In this document: positions 13,468 to 22,820 of the stretch, in pieces
How the letters are laid out: each line of letters begins with the position of its first letter
Position numbering within the stretch: the stretch's first letter is position 1
Assembly: GCA_036676985.1 (NCBI GenBank)
Contig: JAKFBU010000041.1
Span: 96,001 to 160,000, forward strand
Direction of reading: 5' to 3'
DNA from: Candidatus Sericytochromatia bacterium
GTDB lineage: Bacteria; Cyanobacteriota; Sericytochromatia; S15B-MN24; UBA4093
Length of the DNA: 64,000 nt
Program-made: the position numbers and the translations under genes
The notes under the pieces: model-generated
Seen by the model: the letters and a program-made list of their open reading frames with translations, nothing else
Database searches by the model: none
What the model was told of the DNA's origin: nothing

Positions 13468-14565
13468 CTACTTCGTGAGCACGACCTCGTCGAACATCTT
13501 GCCCTCCTTGTCGATGGCCTTGAGCGTCAGGCGGTTGCCGTCCATCTCGGCGGCCATGAAGTGGTAGGCGTCCTTGTAGATCGAGGGCTTGTTCTTGTCC
13601 TGGAACTTCTGACGGCCCGGGCGCAGCCAGGCTCCGCCGCCGCCCGTGATGAGGTAGCGCGTGCCCGCGATGGGGTTCAAGAAGCGCTCGTAGTTGTGCT
13701 CGTGCCCGTTGACGTAGAGATCCACCCCGTACTTCTGGAACAGGGGCTGTACCCGGCTGCGCAGGAAGGCCTTGCCCCCGTCCGCGCCGTTGGAGTAGAA
13801 GGGATGGTGGCCGTAGACGACCTTCCAGGTGGCATTCGAGGAGGCGAGGGCCCGCTCGAGCCAGGCGACCTGGGGGGTGCCGGCCTTCATGAAGTCCCGG
13901 TCGGTGGTGTCGATGGCGAAGAACTCGGCCTGACCCCAGCGGAAGGAATAGTAGCGCTCGGTGCCGCTGGCCTTGGCGGGCAGGTCGAAGGCCCGCAGGT
14001 ACGCGGCCCCCTTCTCGGCCTTCACGTCATGGTTGCCGAAGACCGGGTAGACGGGCGCGTTGGCGCTGATGGGCGCGAACGGCTTGAAGAACCGCCCCGG
14101 ATAGAGCCGCTCCTCGCCGTCGTCGTAGACCACGTCCCCCGTGTGCAGGACGAACTCGGGCTGGTAGGCCGCGAGCCGCTCGGCAATCGCCTTCTGATTG
14201 GCGTTGCCGCTGCCGGTGTCCCCGACGATGGCGAAGCGCGCCTTGCCGGAGCCCGCGGGCGGCGTGCGGAACGTGCCCTCGGCCACGACGCGATCGCCCG
14301 ACAGCAGCTGGTAGGGAACGGCCGTCCCGGCCGGCAGGCCCGTGAGCTGGACGTTGTGGTGCGTCGTCGCCGCGAGCTCCTTGACCGTCCGGCTGTTGGC
14401 GTAGCGCACCTGGCCGATGCCGGCCTCGTCCGTGCGCCACATGAGGATCGCCGACGAGGTCGTCACGTTCTGGACGTACGGCTTCACGGTCAGCGTCTCG
14501 GCCAGGGCGGGAGACGCAAGGGCGATCGCGAGCACGGCCGCGACGGAGTACGAAAGACGGGTCAT
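13468..14565 (-). CDS. Secreted metallophosphoesterase (purple acid phosphatase-like, FN3-like N domain)
   Basis: GDTG, HTGDVVY, GNHD, GHHP, GHEHNYER motifs; signal peptide. Confidence 0.9.
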   Translation of the reverse strand: MTRLSYSVAAVLAIALASPALAETLTVKPYVQNVTTSSAILMWRTDEAGIGQVRYANSRTVKELAATTHHNVQLTGLPAGTAVPYQLLSGDRVVAEGTFRTPPAGSGKARFAIVGDTGSGNANQKAIAERLAAYQPEFVLHTGDVVYDDGEERLYPGRFFKPFAPISANAPVYPVFGNHDVKAEKGAAYLRAFDLPAKASGTERYYSFRWGQAEFFAIDTTDRDFMKAGTPQVAWLERALASSNATWKVVYGHHPFYSNGADGGKAFLRSRVQPLFQKYGVDLYVNGHEHNYERFLNPIAGTRYLITGGGGAWLRPGRQKFQDKNKPSIYKDAYHFMAAEMDGNRLTLKAIDKEGKMFDEVVLTK

Positions 14566-14643
14566 CACTACCTCCTGGGGACGGGACCTACCAACCCGCA
14601 CAGCTTACCGCCAACCTCGGCGCCTGTCACCCCTCATGACGAA

Positions 14644-14740: not shown

Positions 14741-16039
14741 CTAAGACCGGAGCGCGCCCTCGCGCTGCGGCTCGGCCTTGAGGACCGCGACACCGCGCAT
14801 GTAGGGCCGCAGGGCCTCGGGCACCACCACCGAGCCGTCGGCCTGCTGGTAGTTCTCGAGGATGGCCGCCACCGTCCGGCCCACGGCCACGCCCGAACCG
14901 TTGAGCGTGTGCGGGTTCATGAGCTGCTTGTCCCGGCGGAAGCGGAGGCCGCCGCGCCGCGCCTGGAAGTCGGTGCAGTTCGAGCAGCTCGAGATCTCGC
15001 GGTACTTGCCCTGGGCGGGCATCCAGACCTCGAGGTCGTAGGTCTTGGCCGAGTTGAAGCCGACGTCCGCCGAGCAGAGCAGGATCTTGCGGTAGGGCAG
15101 GCCCAGGCGCTGCAGCACGGCCTCGGCGTTGGCCGTCATCTTCTCCAGCTCGTCGAAGGAGGTCTCGGGCGACACCACCTTCACCAGCTCGACCTTGTCG
15201 AACTGGTGGACGCGGATCAGGCCCTTGGTGTCGCGGCCGGCGGCCCCCGCCTCCGAGCGGAAGCAAGGCGTGCCCGCCGTGAGGTGCATGGGCAGCATGT
15301 CCTCGTCGATGATCTCGTCCCGGTACAGGTTGGTGAGGGGGACTTCCGCCGTCGGGATCAGGTAGTACTTGGTGCCCTCGAGCTTGAAGAGCTGATCCGC
15401 GAACTTGGGCAGGTTGCCGTTGGCGAGCAGCGTCTCCTCGTTGGCGACGTAGGGGGGCTGCACCTCGGTGTAGCCGTGCTCGCCCGTGTGCAGGTCCAGC
15501 ATGAAGTTGATGAGCGCCCGCTCGAGCTGGGCGCCAGGGCCGCGCATGAGCGTGAAGCGGGTGCCCGCGAGCTTGACCGCGCGCTCGAAGTCGATGATGC
15601 CGAGGGCCTCGCCCAGCTCCCAGTGAGCCTTGGGCTCGAAGCCGAACGCGGGCACGTCGCCCCAGCGCACGACCTCGACGTTGTCGTCCTCGCTCTCGCC
15701 GTCCGGCACCGACTCGTCCAGCAGGTTGGGAATCTGGTACATGAGCTCGGTGCGCCGGGCCTCGATGTCAGACATCTGGGCCTCGAGGGCCTTGATCCGC
15801 TCGCCGTTGGCCTTGACCGACGCGATGACCTCGGAGGCGTCCTGGCCCGACTTCTTGAGGGCGGCCACCTGCTCGCTCGCCTGGTTGCGCTTGGCGCGCA
15901 GGTCGTCGAGCTCGGTCTGGGTCTCGCGGAACTGCTGGTCGAGCTGCTGCAACGCGCTCAGGTCGAAGGCCATGCGCCGCCGCTGGAGGCTCTTCTCGAC
16001 GCGCTCGGGCTCTTGCCGGATCAGCTTGATGTCTAACAC
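14741..16039 (-). CDS. serS: Serine--tRNA ligase
   Basis: GTG start VLDIKLIR; [56 protein letters not shown]. Confidence 0.97.
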
Positions 16040-16146
16040 GGGATCGCTCCTTGTCAATTGGCGTGAATGTCCTAGTATATCGTGGCGAGGGAAGGCACGC
16101 CAACTTGCTTCACACCACCCCCCTGCATGCATCCCGGGAGGCTTCG

Positions 16147-16581
16147 ATGCGCAACTTTCGACCCTGGACCCAGGCCTGGAGCCAAGAGCTCGGCTGGCTC
16201 ATCGTCCGTGTGACCTTCGGACTGGCACTCGCCACCCATGGCTGGGCCAAGCTCTTCGGAGAGCACGGAGTCTCGGCTTTCGCCGAGCGGGCCGTGGCGC
16301 CCATGGGCTTCCCCGCGCCCCTGCTGTTCGCCTACCTCGCGGCCCTCTCCGAGCTGGTCGGTGGCCTCATGGTCGCCATCGGCCTCTGCACGCCGCTGGC
16401 CGCGCTGACGACCGCCTTCACCATGGCCGTCGCCGTCTTCCGGCACATGAGCGCGGGCGATCCCTTCCAGCGCTACGAGCTGGCCGTCATCTACCTGGCT
16501 ATCTCCGTGGCGGCCATCCTCAAGGGCGGCGGGCGCTTCTCGATCGACGCGAAGCTGCCCTTCTTCCGGACCGATCGCTAA
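16147..16581 (+). CDS. DoxX family membrane protein
   Basis: [36 protein letters not shown]. Confidence 0.88.
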
Positions 16582-16582
16582 A

Positions 16583-16610
16583 AGAGGCGCGTCCGCCCGG
16601 ACGCGCCTCT
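16583..16610. terminator. Hairpin between convergent doxX and sodC
   Basis: AGAGGCGCGTCC-GCCC-GGACGCGCCTCT perfect 12-bp stem. Confidence 0.7.
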
Positions 16611-16620
16611 CGACGACCCA

Positions 16621-17238
16621 CTAGTGGTTGTGATGGCCGCGGTGATCGTGCGGGGCCCCCTGGGTCCCCATGGCGACCACCGGGCCGCAGGCGATGCGCG
16701 CCCCGGCGTTGCCCGCCGGATCCGTGAGGTAGTCGTCCGGGTTGGCGTGGATCATCAGGGACGAGCCGTCCGCATCCAGCAGGGAGTACTTGCCCGGTTT
16801 CAGGGTCAGCAACGGGGCGACGAAGTCCAGCTTGAGCCGGCCCTGCTCGTCTACCACCACGTTGGGCAGGTCGCCCGCATGCGGGCCCTTGGGGTTCTGC
16901 AGGCCGTGCTGCTTGCCGTCCGGGTTGAAGTGGCTCCCGGCGGACGTGAAGGTGGGTCCCTCGCACTGGTTGGTGGCGTGGACGTGGAAGCCGTGCACGC
17001 CCGGCGGCAGGTTGGCGGCGTCGACCTCGATCCGCAGGCCGTCCGCGACCTCGGTGAGGCGCGCCGTTCCGACCTTGGCGCCCTTGCCGTCGATGAGCTC
17101 CGCGGTGGCGGTCATGCCCTTGGCCTGAGCAGGCGCGGCCTTGGCGGGAGCCTGAGGCGTCTGGTGGGCCAGGGCGGCACCCGCTCCGCCGATGGAAGCG
17201 GCCACGAGCCCGGCCACGATGATTCCCTTGCTGATCAT
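16621..17238 (-). CDS. sodC: Periplasmic Cu/Zn superoxide dismutase
   Basis: [16 protein letters not shown]...[23 protein letters not shown]; signal peptide; start MISKG. Confidence 0.93.
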
Positions 17239-17489
17239 GGAGGTTCTCCTTCTAAGCGTGACGCGGCGCGGGGGCGACTCACGGCAGGCTGAGCAGCCGA
17301 CCCGTTCCGCCTCCATTTGACCCCGCGTCCGAGCAGAACGCAATCGACCCTTCTCCGCCGGCGCCGCCCCGAGGTCAAGTTGGGAGCAGGTGGGGGGTGG
17401 CCTCACGGCGCACGCTCGGCAAGCTCGGTTGTTGGCCTGCCGTGCCGATGGTATAGTCAAGGCCACAGCACAGGAAGGGACACCCGTTC

Positions 17490-17891
17490 ATGCCGCACGT
17501 TTCGCTGTCAACTAGCTTGCTGCGCCGCCCCGGCAACCTGCTGCTGGCCCTCTGCTTGGCGTTTGCGGTCTCGAACCTGTTCTCGGTCCTGCCCTTCGGC
17601 AACGCGACCTCGGGCTACATGCCCCCCGTTCCGGCCCCCGTCGCCCAGGCGGTCGACCCCGCGCACCCCGACCTGACAGCCGATACCCTGAACTGGGAAG
17701 ACACCTGCCAGGTCATCTGGGGCGCCCTCTACGACCGCACGGATCCGAGCCAGGGGTGGGCAGCCGTCGGAGCCACCGCCCTCTGGCTGGCCGCGACCGC
17801 GCAGGATCCCCTCGGCGTTACGAGCCCCCGGATTCCGCCGCGCCCCCCGGCGCTCCGCTACTTCCTTCGAGCTCCACCCCGTCTCGCCTGA
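17490..17891 (+). CDS. Small exported protein ending in RAPP; candidate translation-arrest leader
   Basis: Hydrophobic N-terminal segment LLLALCLAFAVSNLFSVL; C-terminus RIPPRPPALRYFLRAPPRLA; purine-rich SD (AGGAAGGGA) and TATAGT -10-like element upstream. Confidence 0.7.
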   Translation: MPHVSLSTSLLRRPGNLLLALCLAFAVSNLFSVLPFGNATSGYMPPVPAPVAQAVDPAHPDLTADTLNWEDTCQVIWGALYDRTDPSQGWAAVGATALWLAATAQDPLGVTSPRIPPRPPALRYFLRAPPRLA

Positions 17892-18025
17892 TCGCCCGCT
17901 GCGATCGCGCCCGGATGCCGCCGCATCCTCCACCCGGTCCCGACCCGGCACTTCCGCGCGTCCGCGCCGGAATGGCCGCGTCGCCATCCTTCCTTTCCGC
18001 GCGACCTTAGATAGGAGTAGTTGCC

Positions 18026-19249
18026 TTGACGCACGTGAAACTCGCTCTCTCCCTCGGTCTCTGTGCCCTCATGGGCCTGGCCTCGCCGGCCTTCGCGAGC
18101 CTCGCCTCGGACATCTTCAAGGACGTGCCCGACGGCCACTGGGCCGAGCAGGGCGTCGCCGAGGTGGCCATCAAGCGCGACCTCATGAAGGGCTATCCCG
18201 ACGGGACCTTCCGCGGCGACCAGCCCTTCACGCGCCTCCAGTTCGTGAGCAGCATGACGGTCCTGCTCAAGGAGCTCGAGGCGCTCTCGAAGGTCACTTG
18301 GCGCCCCGTCGAGCACCCGACCTACGACTTCAAGGACGTCCCCGCCGACCAGAAGACCGAGACCCAGAACCTCACCAACGACTACGGCCTCTTCGAGGGC
18401 GTGCCCGGCATCACGAAGAGCCGCTTCAACGGCGAGCAGACCGTCACGCGCTACGAGATGGCCAAGATCATCAACAACCTCATGCGGCTCGCCGAGGCCA
18501 AGGACGTGGTCCGGCCCCAGGGCAAGGTGGGCGAAGGCCCGACCTTCTCGGACGTGAACCCGTCCGATTGGGCCTATCAGGACATGCAGGGCGTCTCGCA
18601 GCGCTACAAGGTGATGGTGGGCTTCCCTGACGGGACGTTCCGCGGCAACGAGGAGCTGACCCGCTACCAGTACGCCCAGGCCATCTCCCAGACCGTGCCG
18701 CTGATCCGCGAGCTCATCGCCCAGACCACCGAGGTCAAGCAGGAAGAGAAGCGCCAGGCCACCGGCCCGTGGCGCATCCAGGAGCAGCAGCCCATCCGCA
18801 CCGATCTCGGCATCACGTCGAGCGGCCAGACGTCGCTCCGCGCCCGCCTGGTCGGCTATCCCGGCTGGCTCTTCCTGTTCGCCGAGCCGCGCCTCACGGT
18901 CCTGCCGGCTGTCGGGGCCGACGTGGAGGTCGGGGCCTCGGTCAAGTTCCCGTTCCTCGGCCCCCTCCAGTTCCAGCCCTACGTGAGCGGCCAGTACTTC
19001 GGCGGCTCGGGCGCGACGGACCTCGGCCTCGGGGCGTTCGTCTACTGGCGGCCGACCTACTCGTGGGGTGTCTACGGCAAGGGCGGCTACGGCTTCTTGC
19101 AGGCGGTCAGGAACGGCGAACTCGGGGCCGAGTACCACGTGTCGGATCGCCTGTCGTTCGCGGCCGGGTTCTCCGCCTGGCAGACGCCCGCCGCGGGGAC
19201 ACCGACGACCAACTTGGGCTTTACCTTCGGGCCGCAGTTCCGGTTCTAA
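18026..19249 (+). CDS. SLH-domain outer-membrane beta-barrel protein (outer membrane-peptidoglycan tether type)
   Basis: Signal peptide; three SLH repeats (FKDVPDGHWA...GYPDGTFRGDQPFTR; FKDVP...TRYEMA; FSDVNPSDWAY...GFPDGTFRGNEELTRYQYA); amphipathic beta C-terminus ending FGPQFRF. Confidence 0.88.
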   Translation: MTHVKLALSLGLCALMGLASPAFASLASDIFKDVPDGHWAEQGVAEVAIKRDLMKGYPDGTFRGDQPFTRLQFVSSMTVLLKELEALSKVTWRPVEHPTYDFKDVPADQKTETQNLTNDYGLFEGVPGITKSRFNGEQTVTRYEMAKIINNLMRLAEAKDVVRPQGKVGEGPTFSDVNPSDWAYQDMQGVSQRYKVMVGFPDGTFRGNEELTRYQYAQAISQTVPLIRELIAQTTEVKQEEKRQATGPWRIQEQQPIRTDLGITSSGQTSLRARLVGYPGWLFLFAEPRLTVLPAVGADVEVGASVKFPFLGPLQFQPYVSGQYFGGSGATDLGLGAFVYWRPTYSWGVYGKGGYGFLQAVRNGELGAEYHVSDRLSFAAGFSAWQTPAAGTPTTNLGFTFGPQFRF

Positions 19250-19386
19250 TGGCCTGTCGCTCGGGTGAGTCCTCGTAGCGCCGCTGGGAAAAGGATGCGT
19301 GCGGAACGGGGCGGCAAAGGCGCCTTTTGGGCCCTTTCTCCAATTTCGTTCCGCAGCCCGAGCCCCTCTTAATCAGGAGTTCAATC

Positions 19387-20823
19387 ATGCCCCTATTCGC
19401 TCTGCTCATCGCCGTCGCGAGCCTCTGGCCGGCCGCGGCCTGGGCGGCGACCGGGATCGAGACCGTCGATCTGACGGGTAGCTGGGTCGGAATTTCGGCC
19501 CTGCTCCTCTTCGCCTTCGCCTACGTCCTGGTGATGGCCGAGGAGGTCCTGCACCTCAAGAAGTCCAAACCGGTCATGGTCGCGGCCGGCGTCATCTGGA
19601 TCCTGATCGGCCTTGCCTACGCCGGCATGGGCGACACGCACACGGCCGAGACGGCCATCCGGGCCAACCTACTGGAGTTCGGCGAGCTCTTCCTCTTCCT
19701 GCTCGCGGCCATGACCTTCATCAACACCATGGACGACCGGGGCGTCTTCGACGCCCTGCGCGGCTGGCTGGTGGGACGCGGCCTCTCCCTACGCGCCCTG
19801 TTCTGGGTGACGGGGGGGCTCGCCTTCGTCATCTCGCCGGTGGCCGACAACCTCACGACGGCCCTGTTGATGGGAGCGGTGGTCATGGCCCTCGGCGCGG
19901 GCAAGCCGCAGTTCGTCGCCCTCTCTTGCATCAACATCGTGGTCGCGGCGAACGCCGGCGGGGCCTTCAGCCCCTTCGGGGACATCACCACCCTCATGGT
20001 CTGGCAGGCAGGCCGGGTCACGTTCGCCGAATTCTTCGCCCTGTTCGTCCCGTCGCTCGTCAACTGGCTGGTGCCCGCCGCCCTCATGTCCTTCGCCATC
20101 GAGGCGGGCAAGCCAAACCCCATCCACGCAAAGGCCGTCCTGCACGACGGGGCCTGGACGGTGGTGGGGCTCTTCATAGGGACCATCGCCCTGGCGGTCT
20201 CGTTCCACAACTTCCTGCACATGCCGCCGGTCATCGGCATGATGACGGGGCTCGGCGTCCTCAAGCTCTACGGCTACTTCATGAAGCGCACGGCCCCCAA
20301 GAACCGGCAGGTGACCATCAACGAGCCGGACGACGTGTTCGCCGAGCCACTGGCCATCCCCCATGCCCACGTACACAAGGATCCCTTCGACGTGTTCAAG
20401 CAGCTCGAGCGTACGGAGTGGGACACGCTCATGTTCTTCTACGGCGTGATCCTGTGCGTGGGAGGCCTCGGCACCATCGGATACCTGGCCTTGGCCTCCC
20501 AGTTCATGTATGGGGACCTGGGCGCGACCACAGCCAACGTGCTGGTGGGCGTGCTCTCGGCCGTTGTCGACAACATCCCGGTCATGTTCGCCGTCCTGTC
20601 CATGAACCCGGACATGTCACACGGCCAGTGGCTCCTGGTCACGCTGACCGCGGGGGTGGGCGGCTCCATGCTGAGCATCGGCAGTGCCGCAGGCGTCGCC
20701 CTCATGGGCCAGGCGCGCGGCGTCTATACCTTCATGTCACACCTCAAGTGGACCTGGGCGATCGCCCTCGGCTACGCCGCGAGCATCGGCGTCCACTTGC
20801 TGGTGAACCGCCACCTGTTCTGA
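19387..20823 (+). CDS. nhaD: Na+/H+ antiporter NhaD
   Basis: KKSKPV, ISPVADNLTTALLM, AANAGGAFSPFGDITTLMVWQ, EWDTLMFFYG, VDNIP, GGSMLSIGSAAGVALMG. Confidence 0.93.
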   Translation: MPLFALLIAVASLWPAAAWAATGIETVDLTGSWVGISALLLFAFAYVLVMAEEVLHLKKSKPVMVAAGVIWILIGLAYAGMGDTHTAETAIRANLLEFGELFLFLLAAMTFINTMDDRGVFDALRGWLVGRGLSLRALFWVTGGLAFVISPVADNLTTALLMGAVVMALGAGKPQFVALSCINIVVAANAGGAFSPFGDITTLMVWQAGRVTFAEFFALFVPSLVNWLVPAALMSFAIEAGKPNPIHAKAVLHDGAWTVVGLFIGTIALAVSFHNFLHMPPVIGMMTGLGVLKLYGYFMKRTAPKNRQVTINEPDDVFAEPLAIPHAHVHKDPFDVFKQLERTEWDTLMFFYGVILCVGGLGTIGYLALASQFMYGDLGATTANVLVGVLSAVVDNIPVMFAVLSMNPDMSHGQWLLVTLTAGVGGSMLSIGSAAGVALMGQARGVYTFMSHLKWTWAIALGYAASIGVHLLVNRHLF

Positions 20824-20856
20824 GCCTTCCGAGCCCGGCCCTCAATCCGCAGTCGG

Positions 20857-20885
20857 AGGACCCGCCCCTACCGGGCGGGTCCTCA
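20857..20885. terminator. Hairpin after nhaD
   Basis: GAGGACCCGCCC-CTACC-GGGCGGGTCCTC. Confidence 0.65.
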
Positions 20886-20955
20886 CTCCACGGTTGATGC
20901 CTGTCCGGGCGAATCCGAGGTTTATGGCCAGGCCCCCGGGTTCGCGCGGCCCGCG

Positions 20956-21420
20956 CTAACCACCCGCCGCTGCTCCCTGATGAATGTGCTGTTGAGGGGT
21001 CGACCATTCAGGCGAATCATAACTTGGCCCGGGAGAGAACGTATCGAAATCGTCCCGCAAGCCGCGGCCGTAATCGGGCGCAACCCAGGTTCGCACCAAC
21101 GGGCGCCACGGCGCTCGTACGGGTACGAAGCGGGGCCAGGATCCGCGGCGACGGAAGCCTCCATAGCCGCTATAGATCACGCTGCCACGGGCAGGCATGC
21201 CTCCGTAACGATAGCGGTAGCGATAGTACTGCTGGGTACTGTAGCCCGGCTGGTCACTCACCTGCTGGATCCCGTAGCCTTGCTGGGCCTCCATCGGCTG
21301 TGAGGGAGGCTGAAGACCAGGCGGCGGGACCTGTGTCAATGGTGCCGGCGCGCCACAGCCTACCACCCCGAAGGTCAAGCAAAGCCCGAGCATCCCCTGG
21401 GTCACGTGACGTCGGTTCAT
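20956..21420 (-). CDS. Low-complexity lipoprotein of unknown function
   Basis: GGAGG SD then MNRRHVTQGMLGLCLTFGVVG|C lipobox; Q/P/Y/R-rich body. Confidence 0.65.
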   Translation of the reverse strand: MNRRHVTQGMLGLCLTFGVVGCGAPAPLTQVPPPGLQPPSQPMEAQQGYGIQQVSDQPGYSTQQYYRYRYRYGGMPARGSVIYSGYGGFRRRGSWPRFVPVRAPWRPLVRTWVAPDYGRGLRDDFDTFSPGPSYDSPEWSTPQQHIHQGAAAGG

Positions 21421-21659
21421 ACGCTTTCCTCCATGTTGGACGCCGAGGAAACGACCGTCAGCATCCGGCGACCCATGATGTATAGACGTCGCCATACAAC
21501 TGAGGCAATAGCCTGACGATTGATGGAGGGTCGGAATAGCGGTTAGAGGCCAGACATGGCGGAAAGAAGTCGCCGTTGCCCCTCATGAGAATGCCCGTGG
21601 CAACGGCGTCCCCTGGAGGGAGCCTCCACCAGATCGGGCCCCTGACGGCTTTTACTGAC

Positions 21660-22763
21660 CTAGGGGCGATACGAGATCCGGTAGATCCGCCCGCCCGCGT
21701 CATCCGTGAGGAAGAGCGCCCCGTCCGGCGCCGTCAGGACGTCCACCGGCCGCCCCCAGTCCTGGGTGCCCCGCAGCCAGCCCGTGGCGAAGTCCTCCGT
21801 GCCCGCGGGCTTGCCGTCCTTGAACTTGACCCGGACCACCTTGTAGCCCGCCGGCGGAAAGCGGTTCCACGAGCCGTGCATGGCGACGAAGGCGTTGTGG
21901 CGGTACTCGGCCGGAAACTGCGCGCCCGTGTAGAACGTGAGGCCAAGCGGGGCCATGTGGGCCGGGAACTCGACCGCCGGCGGGATGGTCTTGGCGCAGA
22001 AGGCCGCATCCCCCTGATCCGGCTTGCGATCGCCGTAGCACTGGGGCCAGCCGTAATGCCCCCCGAACTGGACGCGGTTCAGCTCCTCGGGGGGCAGGTT
22101 GTTGCCGAGCCAGTCGCGGCCGTTGTCCGTGGCCCACAGGTCCCGCGTGGTCGGGTGCCACGAGAAGCCCACGGCGTTCCGCAGGCCGCGCGCGTAGATC
22201 TCTCGCCCGCTGCCGTCCGGCTTGAAGCGCATGATCGTCGCCCGGGCGGGGTCCTCCTCGACGCAGGCGTTGCAGCTCGACCCGGCCGAGACGTACATCA
22301 TCCCGTCCGGTCCGAAGCCGATCGTGCGGGTCCAGTGCATGCCGCCGTCGGGCAGGCCGCGGGTCACGAGCTGCTTGTCTTCGGCGACGAGATCCCCGTC
22401 CGCATCCGTCAGGCGCTGCACCGCTCCGGTCTCGGCCACGTAGAGGGCGCCATCCCGCCAGGCGACGCCGTGCGGGCGGTTGAGGCCCGTCGCAAAGACG
22501 CTCACGCGGTCGGGCTTGCCGTCCCGGTTGCGGTCGGGCAGCACCAGGATCTCCCCGCTGCGCGGGCGGCTGACCGTGAGATCCCCCTTCGGCGAGAGGG
22601 CCATGAAGCGCACGCCGGAAAGGTCGTCCGCATAGACCTCGATCCGGAAGCCCGGTGGCAGCTTGATCGGATGCGGCAGCGCCTGCGGTGCCGCCTGAGA
22701 GGCGGTCGATAGGGCGCCCAGGATGAACAGCCCAACGAGGGTACGGCCCGGCGCGTGTCCCAT
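21660..22763 (-). CDS. PQQ-dependent sugar/sorbosone dehydrogenase family protein
   Basis: LPPGFRIEVYA, HWTRTIGFGPDG, GSSCNAC, GLRNAVG, YGWP, HGSWNR, GRPVDV. Confidence 0.9.
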   Translation of the reverse strand: MGHAPGRTLVGLFILGALSTASQAAPQALPHPIKLPPGFRIEVYADDLSGVRFMALSPKGDLTVSRPRSGEILVLPDRNRDGKPDRVSVFATGLNRPHGVAWRDGALYVAETGAVQRLTDADGDLVAEDKQLVTRGLPDGGMHWTRTIGFGPDGMMYVSAGSSCNACVEEDPARATIMRFKPDGSGREIYARGLRNAVGFSWHPTTRDLWATDNGRDWLGNNLPPEELNRVQFGGHYGWPQCYGDRKPDQGDAAFCAKTIPPAVEFPAHMAPLGLTFYTGAQFPAEYRHNAFVAMHGSWNRFPPAGYKVVRVKFKDGKPAGTEDFATGWLRGTQDWGRPVDVLTAPDGALFLTDDAGGRIYRISYRP

Positions 22764-22820
22764 GACTCCTCCTCTCCTGGCGGTCAGCCGGGTCATGGTA
22801 CGCCCTCGGAGGCGCGAACG

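Follow-up and report, generated by a model that had tools for sequence, protein, structure and literature searches.

A family of RAPP-ended membrane leaders, putative ribosome-arrest regulators of cation/proton antiporter genes in Sericytochromatia

This study concerns a 133-residue open reading frame (ORF) in a 64,000-nucleotide (nt) stretch of DNA from a Candidatus Sericytochromatia bacterium (contig JAKFBU010000041.1, positions 96,001 to 160,000), hereafter called the window. The ORF, which we call the leader, ends with the motif Arg-Ala-Pro-Pro (RAPP) plus three residues and precedes genes for an SLH-domain outer-membrane protein and an NhaD-type sodium:proton antiporter (Table 1). Arrest of the ribosome at RAPP is established chemistry for the peptides ApdA and ApdP (PMC10951233). 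The most fitting interpretation of the leader and its relatives is that they form a new family in the known class of RAPP arrest leaders, and the common targets of the family are most likely cation/proton antiporters, joined in the window's genus by a second SLH protein. We think it somewhat probable that the leader is a stall-based regulator of the gene or genes downstream, a role for which we infer ribosome stalling, release by force, and unmasking of a Shine-Dalgarno (SD) sequence.

Because long ORFs occur by chance in a GC-rich genome, conservation of the leader was examined. A six-frame search of 41 related genomes identified a full-length orthologue with 45% identity in a genome of the same genus (G001), a paralogue in the window's own genome (G000), and weaker relatives; all of these ended with RAPP and three further residues. 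Using a profile of six members, 18 proteins were detected in a word-indexed collection of 5.8 billion clusters, and an exhaustive reading of 1.84 billion representatives with the same profile gave 14 matches. The family total is 26 distinct sequences, which were aligned. Given the 45%-identity orthologue, the paralogue in the same genome, and 26 distinct relatives with an invariant R, P, and P, we conclude that the leader is a real gene. Its GC contents at the three codon positions (0.70/0.56/0.85) are gene-like for this genome, and related strains in contigs of four other runs span both the leader and the gap behind it. Both hexamers of a promoter-like element upstream of the ORF, together with the TGG before the -10 hexamer, are identical at the orthologous G001 locus, and this element may be the leader's promoter.

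The C terminus of the leader reads ...ALRYFLRAPPRLA (...LRAPPRLA, then the stop), with RAPP at residues 127-130 of 133. By analogy with ApdA, ApdP, and CruR (PMC10951233, PMC12992588), the presumed arrest would place codon 17874-17876 in the P site and codon 17877-17879 in the A site. About 90 residues separate the hydrophobic stretch L17-F36 from R127. The original prediction, which was made from the letters of the DNA, had described the 133-residue ORF with its N-terminal signal or membrane segment, a spacer of about 90 residues, RAPP three codons before the stop, and a co-oriented SLH gene 134 nt downstream; each of these elements was found, the last of them from the gap coordinates (17892-18025) and a match to PF00395. 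An AlphaFold2 (AF2) model of the leader was largely unstructured, with a mean predicted local distance difference test score (pLDDT) of 64 and a predicted template modelling score of 0.29; the highest pLDDT was in a helix at residues 14-33. A further segment of moderate hydrophobicity, W90-A104, has its first residue 39 positions ahead of the P-site proline; at the presumed arrest it would just have left the tunnel, an arrangement that would be compatible with a force-sensitive design. Helices have been reported to first touch the membrane about 45 residues from the peptidyl transferase centre (10.1101/2021.12.23.474019). The only cysteines are C22 and C73, and CxxC is absent.

The columns invariant in all 26 members were V27, L30, and P35 in the membrane segment and R127, P129, and P130. 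These R, P, and P residues were the sole invariant residues outside the N-terminal membrane segment, while the remainder of the C-terminal half varied, and the conservation of RAPP that the original prediction depended on was thereby borne out. Position 128 was A in 23 members, S in two, and G in one, giving 23 RAPP, two RSPP, and one RGPP motifs. Exactly three residues followed PP in 23 of the 26, and in 14 a hydrophobic segment began 35-42 residues before R. The last 34 residues were strongly basic (net +3 to +8, with almost no acidic residues), and the N-terminal side of the membrane segment was basic across the family. The loop after the membrane segment was acidic in subfamily A (net -5 to -7 in 6/7 members) and near neutral in subfamily B. 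Within the long ORFs of the window's genome, a rough ORF set, RAPP was depleted, with 25 occurrences observed versus 63 expected by composition. The leader matched no Pfam or NCBIfam family, and comparison of all 26 members with Pfam gave no convincing match. Protein-language-model look-alikes of family member P0001 were unnamed clusters. Two metagenomic members of subfamily A (P0021 and P0014) have two RAPP motifs 13 residues apart (..ERAPPARSR.AFLLRAPP..A), and P0003 has an internal RAPP plus RGPP in its terminal region.

Of the 47 genomes of the class, 8 have a family member, as do 8 of the 301 in the phylum sample, and all of these fall within one order. The whole-family alignment gave no stretch usable for a related-locus search; subfamilies A and B were used for this purpose. 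Scanning genome contigs with subfamily B gave one locus, coinciding with one already found (L023, = L038), and metagenome-contig scans with subfamilies A and B gave no loci; five metagenomic subfamily-A proteins stand outside the neighbourhood counts given below. Since the profile search of 1.84 billion representatives detected no relatives outside this lineage, RAPP leaders of other phyla are probably independent inventions. If they are, as is probable, independent origins make a recurrent pairing of leader and antiporter more interesting.

To define the genes behind the leaders, neighbourhoods of 13 loci in 8 genomes were read and the downstream genes scanned. A co-directional gene was present 60 to about 400 nt downstream at all 13 loci. 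At 11 of them the first or second gene behind the leader encoded a monovalent cation:proton antiporter, and these antiporters belong to three unrelated transporter families. The first gene encoded a CPA2 (Kef/YbaL-like) antiporter with TrkA_N and TrkA_C domains at seven loci and a CPA1 K+/H+ antiporter (NF003716, 609 bits) at one. Two loci, those of the window and its G001 orthologue, have the SLH gene first and the gene for the Na+/H+ antiporter NhaD second, and one (G018 copy 2) has secF (TIGR00966, 275 bits) followed by two CPA2 genes. The first gene at the two other loci was a Usp gene, followed by a second leader copy of the same cluster (G018 copy 1), and a gene for an OmpR-type response regulator (the RGPP paralogue of G001). 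An SLH envelope tether had been proposed as the target in the original prediction; the common target across the family is instead most likely the cation:proton antiporter.

Two of these loci merit separate description. The two G018 copies lie in tandem (L033 2353-10324, G018:C124): the first ends ...HLRSPPFAR before the Usp gene, and the second ends ...FLRAPPTGA before a lone secF-like gene and two CPA2 antiporter genes, which makes this the only locus (1/13) linking the family to a Sec component. The locus with the CPA1-type K+/H+ antiporter (L037 1634-3710, G008:C28) has a divergent member ending ...RIARSPPRLRLRDPPHHA, and there the pairing of the SD (ACGAGG) with the RSPP codons and those following has a predicted probability of 1.00.

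Codon choice at the motif was unusual. At the 13 loci, which are related to one another, and with 1075 long ORFs of the window's genome alone as the codon reference, the rare Pro codons CCT and CCA made up 11 of 26 (9% genome-wide), the rare Ala codon GCT 6 of 10 (4.2%), and the rare Arg codon AGA 5 of 13 (1.2%). The sequence GCU-CCU-CC is itself complementary to GGAGGAGC. Near the stall site of the window, CTACTTCCT (17858-17866) is the reverse complement of the SLH gene's SD, AGGAGTAG (18013-18020), plus one extra T; the original prediction had proposed this segment as an anti-SD. The minimum free energy (MFE) fold of 17840-18045 closes with that anti-SD/SD helix and contains three predicted hairpins in the GC-rich spacer, in agreement with the short hairpins described earlier. 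Within this spacer, 17972-17987 is a weak terminator-like hairpin (ATGGCCGCGTCGCCAT) followed by CCTTCCTTTC, and this CU-rich tail could be an alternative local anti-SD.

Pairing between the SD core and the 31-nt stall footprint was examined at ten loci, using ensemble folds of a region that began 40 nt upstream of the motif and ended a little beyond the start codon of the next gene. Shuffled footprints were the control (25 per locus; 10 for the G000 paralogue and G018 copy 2). The pairing probability exceeded that of all shuffles at six of the ten: the window (0.85; shuffled mean 0.47), G008C74 (0.82), G005 (0.83), G002 (0.96), and G008C28 (1.00), each with 0/25 shuffles reaching the observed value, and the G000 paralogue (0.55, 0/10). 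When SD regions were scanned for their best duplex partner, it was the stall window at five of ten loci; for the window of this study it was a segment with its centre 20 nt before the P site, which is the anti-SD of the original prediction. At the three loci of genus g2, the consensus structure has UCCUCC of the Ala-Pro-Pro codons opposite GGAGGA, and the UUG start region is paired with the Leu-Arg codons. One g2 genome has a compensatory change from U-A to C-G, with CCC for CCU at the motif and GGGGGA for GGAGGA in its SD. These observations suggest that the recurring rule of the family is a looser one than the helix first proposed: the stall-site codons themselves are complementary to the SD.

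From these results the following sequence of events may be envisioned. The N-terminal segment would bring the nascent chain to the membrane, and the ribosome, on reaching R127-A128-P129 with the P130 codon in the A site, would pause or arrest as at ApdA, ApdP, and CruR. The parked ribosome would cover the CU-rich stall-site codons that otherwise pair with the SD region of the next gene. With those codons covered, translation of the SLH protein would be switched on, and that of nhaD would probably follow. The arrest would end once the chain is pulled, either by insertion into the membrane or by export, and the switch would thus report how well that step runs.

Several results weigh against this model, the first of them from the pairing analysis itself. 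At four of the ten loci pairing was not significant: G007 (0.46, reached by 2/25 shuffles), the G001 orthologue (0.27, against a shuffled mean of 0.30; 10/25), G004 (0.00; 21/25), and G018 copy 2 (0.02; 2/10). Owing to the CU-richness of proline-rich codons, the shuffled mean for the window was already as high as 0.47. The genomes of the three g2 loci are closely related. The result also depended on the flank used, since with 60 nt upstream the SD of the G000 paralogue paired elsewhere in the MFE fold. When the footprint was forced single-stranded, a 15-nt window around the SD clearly opened at only two of ten loci, the window, as the original prediction expected (0.37 to 0.67), and G008C28 (0.26 to 0.59); it opened slightly at two (the G001 orthologue and G005) and did not open at the rest. 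The SD stays closed in most of these folds because other CU-rich proline codons take over. Finally, the anti-SD codons differ in G001 (CGC TAC TTC CTT versus CTG TAT CGC CTG), while the SD/start block is kept. The anti-SD/SD helix of the original prediction therefore stands as the predicted closing helix of the window and fails as a conserved element in G001, the only orthologue with DNA. That the helix between 17858-17866 and 18013-18020 is the switch seems to us possible and somewhat doubtful.

Further points stand against the model. SLH orthologues are present in 42 of the 47 class genomes. Inspection of 7 other genomes placed them beside a cinA-like gene with no RAPP-ended ORF upstream, so that the leader expected before orthologous SLH genes was not found there. 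NhaD orthologues are present in 17 of the 47, and the 12 loci inspected in other genomes had neither a preceding SLH gene nor a leader. Because orthologues elsewhere lack that order, the link between SLH and NhaD rests on two genomes of one genus. The nhaD gene also has a conserved structured spacer of its own (described below), and the strength of RAPP arrest varies with the species of ribosome (PMC12992588).

Four other explanations were considered. In the first, the leader stalls the ribosome and acts on transcription, such that the parked ribosome blocks Rho loading or the 17972-17987 hairpin and RNA polymerase reads into the SLH gene and nhaD. The genome encodes a Rho homologue (PF07497, 116 bits), the hairpin is terminator-like and has a C/T-rich tail, and the spacers of the family are long, at 134 to about 400 nt, untranslated, and C-rich, all of which this explanation would accommodate. 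The hairpin, however, has only 5 pairs, is one of 4 such sites in 17200-21000 where 1.9 are expected, is not conserved in G001, and lies about 100 nt downstream of the stall site. Action on transcription would also leave the complementarity between stall site and SD, the compensatory change, and the rare codons unexplained. We consider it improbable.

Alternatively, the ORF might encode a small membrane protein with a function of its own, such as that of an accessory transporter subunit or an assembly factor; RAPP would then be structural, an interaction motif, or a means of self-tuning, and the leader would not control the next genes. The membrane segment and its PF(G/K) turn match RAPP in conservation, W69, W77, and D82 are retained in the exported part of subfamily-A members, and the leader is far bigger than filling of the exit tunnel requires. 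A physical subunit would be unlikely to have partners as varied as three unrelated antiporter families, an SLH protein, SecF, and a response regulator, and the AF2 model is largely unstructured. The fixed three-residue distance to the stop, the rare codons, and the complementarity to the SD point to a role at the level of the mRNA or ribosome, and we rate the chance that the ORF is only a working protein as low.

An equally low chance is given to the view that the leader and the SLH gene are separate units, with an SLH promoter within the 134-nt gap and an incidental adjacency. It would account for the length of the gap, for its divergence between the two orthologous loci (a 49-nt indel), and for SLH orthologues that lack a leader elsewhere. 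The order leader-SLH-nhaD is nevertheless kept in G001, the SD/start region is the only conserved block of the gap, and the SD pairs with the stall site in the window folds. A strict sigma-70 scan of 17200-21000 found no promoters and hence no match in the gap, a result that is uninformative because the scan also missed the conserved -35/-10-like pair before the leader.

A sensor of copper or another metal, of the CruR/CutF type and linked to the divergent Cu/Zn superoxide dismutase gene (sodC, 16621-17238), is very improbable: a protein-language-model search with P0001 did give a DUF2946 cluster (score 0.90, with the family on 40% of cluster members; a lead only), but PF11162 (DUF2946) was matched by 0 of 26 members at E<=1, CxxC is lacking, a single Cys is present in 6/7 subfamily-A members with none conserved family-wide, no metal genes stand downstream next to the leader at 12 of 13 loci, and a histidine-kinase gene separates sodC from the leader in G001. 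The 0/26 DUF2946 matches and the lack of CxxC led us to reject copper sensing, for which the original prediction, having noted the divergent sodC, had already taken the missing CxxC as contrary evidence.

A stall-based regulator, the explanation that we favor, has precedents, and the leader family can be compared with each. Fujiwara, Tsuji, Sakiyama, Niki, and Chiba (EMBO J 2025; PMC12992588) reported in a census that RAPP and RGPP are depleted from proteomes and cluster near the C termini of small secretory or membrane proteins upstream of diverse genes, and that seven such Streptomyces proteins and CruR arrest in vitro. The leader resembles the census proteins in its small size (<300 residues), N-terminal localization signal, RAPP near the C terminus, and co-directional downstream gene. 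The source table of their Fig. 4B includes the class 'cation:proton antiporter' (75 RAPP versus 81 AAPP upstream ORFs [uORFs], 3.6-fold, the weakest of 30 classes) and also 'carbohydrate porin', and among the uORFs that they list are family member P0001, ahead of a cation:proton antiporter gene, and RAPP uORFs of other lineages ahead of NhaD genes (PMC12992588). The description of the leader as a new arrest-peptide system in the original prediction was thus overstated. The main text of the census has no occurrence of antiporters, none of which was tested there, and 'S-layer homology' was not found in the 7 of 8 supplementary files that were searched (PMC12992588). Our literature search returned no paper joining 'arrest peptide' and 'antiporter' among the matches listed. 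The census text further states that such uORFs are absent from Cyanobacteriota (PMC12992588), whereas the NCBI records of three members of the leader family are labelled with the names of cyanobacterial genera. PsaA/PsaB are absent from the window's genome, which is 100% complete, and this fits a non-photosynthetic relative of cyanobacteria.

ApdA of Amycolatopsis japonica and ApdP of Sinorhizobium medicae, which lie upstream of secDF, share with the leader a C-terminal RAPP, an N-terminal export signal, and a presumed unmasking of the downstream ribosome binding site (RBS) (Sakiyama et al. 2021, PMC7897499; Morici et al. 2024, PMC10951233). The leader family differs in that its targets are not export machinery (secF at 1 of 13 loci), the motif is the sole sequence relationship, and arrest is presumed rather than established. 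At the window the downstream products are the SLH protein and NhaD, not a protein-localization component such as lies behind Sec/YidC monitors. SecM, which controls secA in E. coli, is similar in having a force-sensitive motif (RAGP) near the C terminus, an exported N terminus, and SD unmasking by the stalled ribosome (PMC10951233); it differs from the leader in motif variant, target, and lineage. CruR of Bordetella pertussis and CutF of Rhodobacter capsulatus are likewise exported or membrane-located leaders whose C terminus carries a proline-rich or RAPP arrest motif, and an RBS-masking stem-loop controls their next gene (10.1101/2025.02.05.636593); the leader family, unlike them, has no DUF2946 match, CxxC, His/Met cluster, or metal-related targets. 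For VemP-SecDF2 of Vibrio alginolyticus, low Na+ inactivates the Na+-driven SecDF1, the pulling force is lost, the ribosome stalls, and the RBS is exposed (PMC5449182). VemP is therefore an earlier example of an arrest peptide that is exported and reports on an ion condition, the logic proposed here for the antiporter leaders, although its arrest sequence is different and lacks RAPP and its target is a Sec component, not an ion transporter (PMC5449182).

The features of the window are listed in Table 1. In the SLH protein, which has a signal peptide-like N terminus and ends ...FGPQFRF, the SLH part alone was matched by SLH-domain chains in the PDB (8bz2, 8bys, 8bym, and 7zgx; E 3e-9 to 1e-7) and was also the best stretch for NF033921 (98.2 bits, below the cut-off of 100). 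Residues 240-407 had no family or PDB match; the C-terminal Phe and an alternating pattern suggest a barrel. The gene has a paralogue with 61% identity at G000:C56:11943-13340 (-), beside a cinA-like gene in the same context as in other genera. Because that cinA-linked copy is the housekeeping one, the window gene is the second paralogue. The distal gene of the leader-SLH unit is probably nhaD, which would be co-transcribed with it. The order serS-sodC-leader-SLH-nhaD-dehydrogenase is kept in G001, with the histidine-kinase gene inserted between sodC and the leader. An Rfam scan of 16500-21500 (E<=1) gave no matches.

Table 1. Coordinates of features in and around the leader-SLH-nhaD region, numbered from the first base of the window
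Feature	Position	Strand	Basis or remark
Metallophosphoesterase-like exported protein	13468-14601	-	Sequence reading only
Seryl-tRNA synthetase-like ORF (serS)	14741-16132	-	Sequence reading only
DoxX family membrane protein	16051-16581	+	ORF and Pfam
Divergent Cu/Zn superoxide dismutase gene (sodC)	16621-17238	-	PF00080
Promoter-like element of leader	17429-17457	+	TTGTTG (17429-17434), 17-nt spacer, TATAGT (17452-17457); read from sequence
SD-like AGGAAGGG of leader	17472-17479	+	Kept as AGGAGGGG in G001
Leader ORF, 133 residues	17490-17891	+	ATG 17490, TGA 17889-17891; RAPP-ended small membrane protein family
Predicted N-terminal membrane segment L17-F36	17538-17597	+	Hydropathy; follows RR (residues 12-13); signal anchor or signal peptide
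Second, moderately hydrophobic segment W90-A104	17757-17801	+	Hydropathy 1.39; AF2 helix 87-104, low confidence
Proposed anti-SD (GCTACTTCCT)	17857-17866	+	Original prediction; pairs with 18013-18020 in MFE and centroid folds
R-A-P-P codons CGA GCT CCA CCC	17868-17879	+	Presumed arrest site; then R-L-A and stop
GC-rich leader-SLH spacer, three predicted hairpins	17892-18012	+	Poorly conserved with G001 except SD-proximal block; 49-nt indel
SD AGGAGTAG (18013-18020) and TTG start of SLH gene	18013-18028	+	Block kept in G001 (TGGAGTGG...TTG)
SLH-domain outer-membrane protein, 407 residues	18026-19249	+	PF00395, 74 bits, two stretches; TTG start 18026
Conserved structured spacer between SLH gene and nhaD	19258-19364	+	84% identical to G001 over 100 nt
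NhaD-type sodium:proton antiporter gene	19387-20823	+	NF038006, 581.5 bits (cut-off 80); PF03600
Glucose/sorbosone dehydrogenase-like beta-propeller protein	21660-22796	-	ORF and Pfam

Conservation with G001 is higher in the SLH-nhaD spacer than in the leader-SLH spacer. A long stem-loop of 33 pairs, 2 of them compensatory (from two sequences; z = -1.85), is predicted in the SLH-nhaD spacer and includes the palindrome AAAGGCGCCTTT (19316-19327). This spacer may act as a further regulatory element for nhaD, or it may be a processing site or a repeat. Its 5' half recurs in part, as a third copy (76% over 51 nt), at the locus of the RGPP paralogue (L079 1501-1551, G001:C162:11642-11692). This copy immediately precedes a small ORF whose start is GIY-YIG-like (..YIYQLRCQDGSYYAAATRDL..), and it stands some 230 nt ahead of a gene for an NRAMP transporter.

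Because relatives of the leader precede three unrelated antiporter families, we think that the physiological variable is tied to ion or proton-motive conditions at the membrane. A more specific proposal, that the leaders are sensors of membrane energy or ions whose release from arrest depends on the proton- or sodium-motive force, or on the action of pH or cations on the exported loop, is speculative and on balance unlikely. If it were true, a fall in motive force would directly switch on cation/proton antiporters and, in this organism, also a dedicated paralogue that serves as a channel or tether of the outer membrane; such a design would have evolved separately in this lineage, in actinomycetes, and ahead of NhaD genes in other groups; and the principle of VemP would be extended from Sec components to ion homeostasis.

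Riboswitches otherwise account for most of what is known of post-transcriptional control of antiporters. A leader that acts in the proposed way would tie the well-understood chemistry of ribosome arrest to Na+/H+ and K+/H+ antiporter regulation. As a test case the family is compact, with one motif before three unrelated antiporter families and an outer-membrane protein, and the natural covariation of stall codons and SD suggests that the stall codons double as an anti-SD. It also places RAPP leaders in relatives of cyanobacteria that lack the photosystem I core gene, within a phylum for which the text of the 2025 census reported none (PMC12992588). In the window's genus, where the proposed control would extend to an SLH paralogue, this hints that the architecture of the envelope or the permeability of the outer membrane may be adjusted together with sodium extrusion.

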